A stretch of DNA of 63,294 bases, counting the filler, from Collodictyon triciliatum (taxonomy: Eukaryota): assembly GCA_043381765.1 (NCBI GenBank). It is 8 parts of 8 records of this genome, joined end to end, with 100 filler letters (N's around TTAATTAATTAA, not from the genome) between each part and the next. Parts side by side here need not be neighbours in the genome. Positions count along the whole stretch, not along the records: positions 26,837 to 34,053 come from JBHJMP010004006.1; 7 more parts are not named here. One strand, 5' to 3'. Of the stretch, positions 27,972 to 29,831 are shown one piece after another (the first letter of the stretch is position 1; the number at the start of each line of letters is the position of its first letter). The notes beneath the pieces were generated by a model, which was given only the letters and a program-made list of their open reading frames with translations, had not been told where the DNA came from and did not search any database. The translations under genes and the position numbers were made by a program.

Positions 27972-29831
27972 ATGAAGAAAAGAAAACGTCTTGAGTTTGA
28001 GAATCTGAAGTCTGTAAAACCACACTATTGAAATGTGAAAACATCTCTTAAATCGATTATAAAGAATGCGGATGAATATTAAAAAATCAAGGATACGTTT
28101 TTATTGTGTCATAATTTGGTTACCGACGCTTATCTTTTGCAAGATGTTACACATTGAAATCACAACAGCTCCCAAAAATCGATGAAAAGTTTTTTTTTGT
28201 ACGCTATAAAGTCAGTTGGAGTAGTTTCACAAGGTAGACCCGCAAGATTAAAAAATCCAGAAATGAGTATCGACATGATGGCTTTCTTATCTCAATGATT
28301 TTCGATTCCTTTTGTCCCGATAAGAACGCTCTCCGTTGGTTAGACTGTCTCATGTATTACCATACTTGACGAAGCAAATGTTTACAGCTTATCGTAATAA
28401 CATTAAGGAACATTATGTAAAGAGGTTACTGCGCTTTATAAATCAAGCAGTTCCTAAAGATGAGAATATGACTGAAGCTGTTAAAAAGGCAGAGTTACGA
28501 AAGTTAAAAAAAAGTCATCTTCAAGAAATTCGAAATACCGGAACAATATAAAGAATAGCTACAACGCATTTGCGTCTTATCATTCCCAGCGATATTGTGA
28601 ATGGTATCGAATATGACGTCAAAGTCAATCCAAATAAGTACATTCCATGTCTGATTTACACGAATCGCATTTTTAAGGACATTGGAACCAAACTGCTTCA
28701 ACCAATCTCTATAAGAACTAAAATATACCACGCCATATTACTCCAGATACTGCATGTTTGACAGATTTATTAGTATTATCTGGAAAGAACATTATTACTG
28801 AAGAATATATCAAGATGCAAAGAGACCCTATGGGATGAGTTCTTTGAAATGAAGAGGGTCTTTCATCAAAGATATTAGAATTTTAAATACATGATAGAAA
28901 CAGACGGCTTGGCGGTGTCATTATCGTTTGAGAAGATAGGTATTTCAAATTCAAAATCCAATATAATCAGAAGACCCAAGAATATGTCTATATAGATGAA
29001 CTTTCCGAAGAGCAGTTTTCATTATTAGACAAAAAAAAAATATAGTTGGAGTGGACGCAGGCAAGTTTAATTTGGTTTACATGGTGGATGAGACAGGTAA
29101 GAGATTACGTTGCACGGCACACCAAACAAGGCATGATAGCAAATCTCATAAAAATTCACAAAAAACTCTTGCGTGACAAAAAAGAAAAGTACGAAGCTTC
29201 AGGGATATGCATGGCAACAGATTTACAAAGTGCTATTTCTTTTGGTCTGATGACTTTTGAAGAGAATCAGCAGTTTGAGACATCAAGAGCATCTTTAATC
29301 GATTCAGAGACAGACCTGAGTAAACATAATTCATGCACGGTCGATTATAAATAATTTCGGGAATATGTATCTATGAAATCAAGATACCAGATAGAACTAT
29401 CCAGATTTTATGAACAAGTAACTTTTCGAAAGATGAGATGGAGACAGTATGATAAAACAAAAAGAAGTGGACAGTTGTTTATGGACTGAATTGAAATGAC
29501 ATTTGGCAAGGATGTTGTACTAGCGCATGGATACTGGAGCAGAAAATCTCAGATGAAACATTTTATGCCAGCAATTGGAAGAGGATTACGAAAAATATTA
29601 TCCAAACGTTTTGAAACAGTTAGTGTAAACGAATTTACAACATCCAAGATATGCTGCAACTGCGAAAAAGAACTGGAATATATGAAACCGAAAGGAAATC
29701 CAAAAAAGGTTTATAGATGTCTCATATGTAGAGAATGCAATTGCTCAGAAAGCAAAAAAAGTGCATTCTTGAAAAGGGACTTTAACAGCGCTAATAATAT
29801 ATTCAAGAACGTTCTTTTTAATCCTTCATAA
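27972..29831 (+). pseudogene. Decayed Fanzor1 (TnpB-family RNA-guided endonuclease), intronless, with several stops and frameshifts
   Basis: Colinear motifs across frames: VKTSLKSII, LPKIDEKF, LPYL..QM...NNIKEH..RLLRFIN, YDVKVNP, IETDGLAVSL; RuvC-I IVGVDAG (D 29054); GYWSR..QMKHFMP; RuvC-II VNEFTTSKICCNC (E 29631); CLICREC; RuvC-III RDFNSANNI (D 29778). Confidence 0.9.

Follow-up and report, generated by a model that had tools for sequence, protein, structure and literature searches.

Fanzor1 is a eukaryotic, TnpB-derived, RNA-guided RuvC DNA endonuclease borne by DNA transposons, and structural and biochemical characterisation of Fanzor enzymes dates from 2023 onwards. We analysed a stretch of DNA of 63,294 nucleotides (nt) from Collodictyon triciliatum (GenBank assembly GCA_043381765.1), hereafter the window, in which positions 27972-29895 of the plus strand can be read with high confidence as a single, decayed, intronless, and full-length copy of a Fanzor1 gene belonging to a multi-copy transposon family. 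Reports of dead Fanzor1 copies within multi-copy families go back to 2013 (PMC3627910). In the cases described, the transposons that have captured Fanzor1 include Mariner, Helitron, and hAT, a genome may contain as many as 122 Fanzor copies, the guide RNA is derived from the 3' non-coding region next to the right end of the transposon, and the RuvC-II Glu is relocated approximately 45 residues from its canonical site (PMC10530073, PMC10432273, PMC3627910). Bao and Jurka gave the Fanzor/TnpB motif as D-X(125,275)-[TS]-[TS]-X-X-[C4 zinc finger]-X(5,50)-RD and described an extra conserved Gly and Glu of Fanzor1, which are G500 and E536 of SPu-1-1p (PMC3627910).

The relic was aligned to four reference proteins (P0002, P0022, P0008, and P0156) with a custom protein-to-DNA aligner permitting frame changes. 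Residues 1-642 of P0156 were colinear with 27972-29895, and 394 of 638 positions were identical (62%). Residues 2-588 of P0002, a protein of 634 amino acids (aa), were placed at 27978-29801 with 251 of 622 positions identical (approximately 40%), and the alignments of P0022 and P0008 followed the same path. Moreover, a tblastn search of the window with the 634-aa P0002 returned four colinear pieces with a joint expectation value (E) of 9e-95. Since no alignment contained an intron-sized gap, the relic gene is intronless, which agrees with the intronless stretch of about 1.86 kb proposed in an initial annotation of this DNA. The gene end given there, 29831, was too early, because the P0156 alignment reaches 29895 through a frameshift near 29817 that hides the last 30 or so codons. 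Six P0156 residues were left unaligned past 29895, and 29896-29963 (+) is taken to hold the last few codons of the original frame together with the approximate right edge of the repeat unit. The C-terminal half was also read through as a 243-aa sequence (P0001, 29100-29828, with two stops written as X) and compared by phmmer with 1.84 billion representatives. Of the 1586 matches at E<=1e-3, 522 reached E<=1e-10 and 26 reached E<=1e-30; the strongest had an E of 8.6e-52, and the full-length relatives measured about 590-700 aa.

The motifs quoted in the initial annotation, from MKKRKR through KRDFNSANNI, were all found where it had placed them. They are split over small open reading frames (ORFs) in three different reading frames, yet they are colinear as one protein. 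On the plus strand, they begin with the basic N-terminus MKKRKR (27972-27989). Since this run is letter for letter the same in P0156, the N-terminus is part of the protein. A run of at least four K/R within the first 15 residues was present in 14 of 48 full-length homologs, and MKKRKR is a candidate nuclear localisation signal. Such N-terminal signals of Fanzors have been shown experimentally, with 21 of 22 tested being functional (PMC10530073). In the 48-homolog alignment (A1), the IETDG motif (28894-28908) covers the invariant T318 and also D319 and G320, which are conserved at 90% or more. The RuvC-I motif IVGVDAG was read in the sequence at 29042-29062, and the A1 and P0156 alignments place the codon of its catalytic Asp (GVDAG) at 29054-29056. 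It is followed by HGYWS (29526-29540), whose G at 29529 aligns with the invariant G496 of A1, and by QMKHFMP (29550-29570) and VNEFTTSK (29625-29648), both read in the sequence. The RuvC-II catalytic Glu (VNEF, codon 29631-29633) corresponds to the invariant E530 of A1, aligns with the Glu of PpFz1 and SpuFz1, and lies five residues ahead of the first zinc-finger Cys. The C4 zinc finger, assigned by the A1 alignment, occupies 29652-29738 and consists of CCNC (29652-29663) and CLICREC (29718-29738). The last motif, KRDFNSANNI (29772-29801), was read in the sequence and contains the RD of RuvC-III (29775-29780, catalytic Asp codon at 29778), which is the invariant R580 and D581 of A1.

Seven columns are invariant in the 48 full-length homologs, and six of them (T, Y, G, E, R, and D) are preserved in the relic. 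The sole loss is the Pro after the RuvC-I Asp, which is Ala in the relic. Also retained are the RuvC-I Asp and four Cys, all of which are nearly invariant. The catalytic triad had been called intact, and this holds for the codons (29054, 29631, and 29778), but it says nothing about activity. Compared with the motif of Bao and Jurka, the relic has the D at 29054, the TS-KI-C from 29640 about 195 codons further on, the CCNC and CLICREC halves of the finger, and the RD at 29775, 12 codons beyond the last Cys. The additional Gly and Glu of Fanzor1 correspond to G in HGYWS (29529) and E in VNEF (29631), which align with their SpuFz1 and PpFz1 counterparts. Furthermore, the colinearity with P0156 and a match of the relic's middle part to the N-terminal half of GtFz1 indicate the full-length architecture, that is, a long N-terminal region (WED/REC) and a split RuvC with an inserted zinc finger.

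Among the solved structures, only those of Fanzor1 matched by sequence. The phmmer search of PDB with P0001 returned PpFz1 (1.1e-8), GtFz1 (3.7e-6), and SpuFz1 (5.7e-4) as the top three of five sequences at E<=10, and the other two were noise. The middle part (28297-28992) matched GtFz1 at 2.4e-6, SpuFz1 at 0.061, and PpFz1 at 0.19, with colinear positions. No Fanzor2 or TnpB chain was found by PDB phmmer at E<=10 with either the C-terminal half or the middle part. The first 108 codons alone had no PDB match; a Cry10Aa peptide hit (0.47) to them was rejected as noise.

The initial annotation had suggested a frameshift-aware alignment and a fold comparison with SpuFz1; the former recovered one colinear Fanzor1 protein, as described above. 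The full-length fold comparison was made on P0002, the nearest intact homolog used for folding, as a proxy, and the relic itself was folded for its C-terminal 243 aa only. The AlphaFold2 model of P0002, built from a 48-sequence alignment, had a predicted local distance difference test score (pLDDT) of 88 and a predicted template-modelling score (pTM) of 0.85. In Foldseek, this model matched SpuFz1 (9cey) over its whole length with an E of 1.5e-30, a template-modelling score (TM) of 0.79/0.82, and 628 columns. PpFz and GtFz ranked after SpuFz1, and the TM values for Fanzor1 were 0.67-0.79. In contrast, the values for Cas12, TnpB, and Fanzor2 were 0.19-0.34, including 0.23 for Fanzor2 (9b0l) and 0.19 for ISDra2 TnpB (8h1j). 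The model of the relic's own C-terminal part had a pLDDT of 79.6, and its top seven fold matches were all Fanzor1 (E 6e-7 to 1.2e-4). The Fanzor1 family and domain order claimed for this locus are thus borne out by both sequence and fold.

The relic gene cannot make a protein, since it contains six in-frame stops and 7 to 11 frameshifts, in line with the earlier view that the copy is dead. The stops at 28080, 28321, 28876, 29352, and 29487 were recovered with all four references, and the stop at 28029 was recovered with all three references whose alignment gets that far. Frameshifts near 28135, 28288, 28725, 28788, 28950, 29030, and 29150 were found with four of four references, and those near 28188, 28516, and 28556 with three of four. 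The frameshift at 29817 was seen with P0156 only, the single reference whose alignment gets there, which gives 11 frameshifts in all against P0156. Since the stops use TGA, TAA, and TAG opposite different residues, no alternative genetic code revives the frame. The description "decayed only moderately" is generous, given 17 disabling lesions in 1.9 kb.

Part of the damage is private to the relic, because other copies lack the stop at 28321 (absent from all 14 contigs of the public run X2 that span this position) and differ from the relic by single-base indels at four of its frameshift sites. The relic is a member of a multi-copy repeat family, and numerous diverged copies of this family are present in two other organisms. 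Small fractions of the words of this stretch occur in eight public runs, four of which were compared on 27300-30600 at a likeness of at least 80%. There were 458 contig pieces on this segment in X2 (organism A) and 468 in X5 (organism B). When sorted by likeness (99% and above, 95-99%, 90-95%, and below 90%), the X2 pieces numbered 45, 93, 186, and 134, and the X5 pieces 31, 89, 206, and 142. Up to 18 (X2) and 21 (X5) different contigs overlapped a single position. Two freshwater metagenome runs contributed 22 and 9 pieces, of which two were identical to the window over 151 nt. No second copy of the relic was found within the window.

The contig pieces also outline the repeat unit. Its 5' non-coding part, before the start codon, is assigned to 27007-27971 (+) from the X2 and X5 pieces, which cover this region from at least 27328 up to 27747; moreover, a loose end of X5 at 27383 (three contigs) continues with 26 of 30 positions, counted by eye, identical to 27007-27036. 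A six-frame Pfam scan of 26990-27971 found no domain and only a low-complexity match (E 0.017). On the right, the longest listed pieces stop at 29886 and 29895, and the summed contig depth, which is not a copy number, drops from above 100 to below 15 past 29963 (110-161 in 29853-29963 and 0.5-2.5 in 29964-30074). The repeat unit may tentatively be placed from about 27007 to 29900-29960, with its right edge perhaps within about 50 nt of the original stop. Two segments, a T-rich microsatellite block (27037-27382) and an AT-rich stretch (27748-27934), are skipped in some other copies, and joints from 27747 to 27935 are present in both X2 and X5. These segments are either insertions or expansions in the relic or deletions in the other copies.

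The initial annotation had also proposed that intact siblings may exist. Many sibling copies do exist and some are free of the relic's lesions, but no intact member of the relic's family was seen among the X2 and X5 contigs, the freshwater runs, and the protein library. Four close sibling fragments were found in the protein library, with 59-73% identity in the A2 alignment, and the three looked up were all NCBI-sourced. Two of the four (P0027 and P0076) are visibly frame-shifted, and the other two (P0067 and P0089) are scraps of 74 and 68 aa. P0027 and P0076, from contigs of 513-629 nt, consist partly of the Fanzor frame and partly of a shifted frame that also exists in the relic. Database ORFs of this family can be pseudogene fragments. 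The nearest intact ORF found is P0156, at only 62% identity. It is a 648-aa metagenomic ORF on a 2610-nt contig, carries the precomputed Pfam assignment PF26935, and was 64% identical to P0001 in a word-indexed search. Both P0156 and the relic have the MKKRKR start and the same insert of 30-odd residues after RuvC-I, which is missing from P0002; P0156 is intact, whereas the relic is broken, over the aligned P0156 residues 1-642.

More distant intact relatives are found in giant-virus contigs and are approximately 40-50% identical to the relic. In a language-model atlas, the clusters of P0002 were 92-100% viral, with Nucleocytoviricota being the commonest, and five IMG/VR contigs of 57-254 kb carried full-length P0002 relatives with 49-88% identity. 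Three different contigs (L003, L004, and L005) were 100% identical over the whole stretch compared. The only unit shared between L002 (2631-5952) and L004 (2625-5951) measures 3.3 kb, with 74% nt identity, terminal inverted repeats of 33-53 nt, and TA outside both ends. It encodes a divergent DDE_3 transposase of 343-346 aa, which scored 51.4 and 57.8 bits (cut-off 28.6), and also carries a 634-aa Fanzor1 gene that is intact and has about 50 nt after its stop. Judged by these features, the unit is apparently an intact Tc1/mariner-type transposon. By analogy with these viral relatives and their approximately 50 nt after the stop, any ancestral guide-RNA scaffold of the relic would overlap the 3' end of the gene. 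A metagenome scan with the C-terminal piece gave 114 pattern matches and one confirmed locus (L001), a P0002-like gene whose similarity to the relic is confined to the coding part, with none in the non-coding part.

The genomic context of the relic is limited by the structure of the window. Spacers of the form N44-TTAATTAATTAA-N44, in which the middle part is a six-frame stop linker, lie at 7276-7375, 19414-19513, 26737-26836, 34054-34153, 41370-41469, 48685-48784, and 55994-56093, and the lengths of the intervening pieces decrease steadily (7223, 7217, 7216, 7215, 7209, and 7201 nt). The artificial spacers at 26737-26836 (left) and 34054-34153 (right) bound the relic's contig. Since the window is a chain of size-sorted unlinked contigs, only 26837-34053 is true context and neighbourhood arguments across spacers are void, which affects any other finding relying on neighbourhood in the window. 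The intron-dense surroundings described in the initial annotation lie mostly on contigs unlinked to the relic. The relic's own contig bears likely intron-split kinase exons. These are short open frames resembling protein kinase exons at 31107-33225 (-), downstream of the relic, one with a glycine-loop-like GAGSFG and another with the C-terminal lobe. One of the four frames tested matched Pfam PK_Tyr_Ser-Thr weakly, below its cut-off of 23.1 bits (20.6 bits, E 3e-4), and the kinase-like gene is probably a host gene. The G+C content (GC) of the relic, 0.341, is close to the 0.349 of the rest of the contig. Long microsatellites, (TTTCC)n, (TTTTC)n, and (AAT)n, occur at 26498-26736, 26837-26975, 33930-34053, and many other contig ends. 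The assembly evidently breaks at simple repeats, and the genome is very rich in them. On another contig, 15019-16390 is GC-rich and contains a (GYGS)n-like repeat as well as long open stretches in several reading frames. A sulfotransferase ORF on a contig other than the relic's fell into mixed clusters of diatoms and arthropods in the language-model atlas.

Several observations weigh against the reading of a decayed Fanzor1 transposon copy. In Pfam, pieces of the relic scored below cut-off only (Cas12f1-like_TNB 8.8e-4 and OrfB_IS605 0.049). No inverted repeats beyond low-complexity matches were found between 26975-27990 and 29800-30060, and no remnant of a DDE_3 transposase was detected in the window (best tblastn E 6.1). 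Rfam had no guide-RNA match in the relic region, and the fold z-score of 29740-29965 was only -2.03, with 11 of 200 shuffles being as good, in a segment that is mostly the hidden coding tail. The frameshifts at 28190, 28516, and 29028 lie in homopolymer runs of 8-10 bases and may be assembly errors. The type of the X2 and X5 runs is uncertain (RNA was guessed), and contig depth in them does not equal copy number. As for the transposon ends, the inverted-repeat sequence of the giant-virus elements was not found in the relic's contig with up to seven mismatches; the left end of the relic may lie beyond the contig start at 26837. The weak Pfam matches, together with the RuvC and zinc-finger core that the relic has in common with TnpB, are what a prokaryotic TnpB, a Fanzor2 (IS607-type) gene, or contamination would have in its favour. 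However, the intact P0002 likewise stays below the Cas12f1-like_TNB cut-off (0.0089), and the Pfam set was searched without PF26935, the model attached to the relatives by the language-model atlas and the protein library. Since the intact P0002 does no better in Pfam, the weak scores reflect a model set without PF26935. Moreover, no TnpB or Fanzor2 chain appeared at E<=10 by sequence, the TM to 9b0l (0.23) and 8h1j (0.19) was far from the 0.79 for SpuFz1, the length of about 640 aa and the long N-terminal half agree with GtFz1, and the same contig bears likely intron-split eukaryotic exons. The probability of this origin is thus close to negligible, and Fanzor1 stands as the family.

It is also highly improbable that the gene is alive and that the breaks represent assembly errors, introns, programmed frameshifts, or a variant genetic code. 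Such an explanation could draw on the three homopolymer frameshifts and on the fragmentary assembly, with its contigs of about 7 kb and its gaps. Against this, the six stops are of the substitution type, use all three stop codons, and stand opposite different residues of the relatives; at least seven frameshift sites lie outside long homopolymers; the stop at 28321 and four indel sites are private to the relic; the invariant Pro is lost; and no alignment has an intron-sized gap. A third explanation, that the copy arrived in an integrated giant-virus fragment rather than by transposition of a resident eukaryotic element, is suggested by the predominantly viral clusters of P0002 and by full-length P0002 relatives with 80-88% identity on viral contigs of 57-254 kb. 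However, the overall identity of the relic to P0002 is only about 40%, scans of the IMG/VR viral collection with P0156 and with the relic's C-terminal piece found no relative, and the 7.2-kb contig carries no recognisable viral gene but likely intron-split kinase exons. In addition, the GC of the relic equals that of its contig, and the hundreds of diverged pieces from two organisms are consistent with a dispersed repeat. A viral fragment is therefore unlikely as the source, and we favour a dead copy of a resident, dispersed Fanzor1 element.

From the comparison with characterised Fanzors, a history of the relic can be proposed. The live ancestor would have been translated from an mRNA starting upstream of 27972, and the protein would have been imported into the nucleus through its basic N-terminus. 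It would have bound a guide RNA whose template was the gene's 3' end together with the right end of the transposon, and would have cut DNA beside a target-adjacent motif, an activity demonstrated for SpuFz1 and other Fanzors. The gene may have travelled in a DNA transposon, of the Tc1/mariner type or another, whose transposase was its own or borrowed. The copy would then have undergone neutral decay between genes of a eukaryotic genome, approximately 1.1 kb from the likely host kinase gene. We further speculate, with considerable reservation, that a large Fanzor1 family, sister of the mariner-borne Fanzor1 of giant viruses, was recently active, and maybe still is, in a freshwater eukaryote lineage, and that intact members with a guide RNA overlapping the 3' end of the gene persist in the source genome or in organisms A and B. 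If true, this would exemplify the natural shuttling of an RNA-guided nuclease from virus to host and would offer a new compact enzyme. The relic itself adds a new copy to an already well-known class of Fanzor1 relics and matters little alone. It points to an apparently abundant Fanzor1 family with P0156 as its nearest intact relative, and it further connects the Fanzor1 copies of eukaryotes with the Fanzor1 genes that Tc1/mariner elements carry in giant viruses.

Compared with the solved Fanzor1 nucleases, SpuFz1 (8GKH, 9CEU-9CEZ), PpFz1 (9CF0-9CF3), and GtFz1 (9CER-9CET), the relic has the same domain order and shares the G..W, E-x-T-S-x-x-C, C4 finger, and RD motifs. The identity between these structures and the relic and P0002 models was 16-25% over the Foldseek-aligned columns, and the relic, unlike the solved nucleases, is dead. 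The protein length of about 640 aa fits the Fanzor mean of 620 (PMC10530073). The Fanzor1-in-mariner architecture has been described for elements of the PGv-1, PUl-1, and PUl-4 type (Bao and Jurka 2013, PMC3627910). The L002/L004 unit matches the PGv-1-type layout, with a DDE_3 transposase, a Fanzor1 gene, inverted repeats, and TA flanks. The relic differs from these elements, since neither inverted repeats nor a transposase can be recognised in the window; from its sequence, it resembles the Fanzor-only, non-autonomous members of this type. As a family, the relic and its siblings are comparable to CMe-1A of Cyanidioschyzon merolae, which, as described in PMC3627910, is likewise dispersed with mostly decayed members. 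The host and the family are different, and no intact member of the relic's family was seen; its copies are approximately 80-99% alike, and most of those seen are broken.

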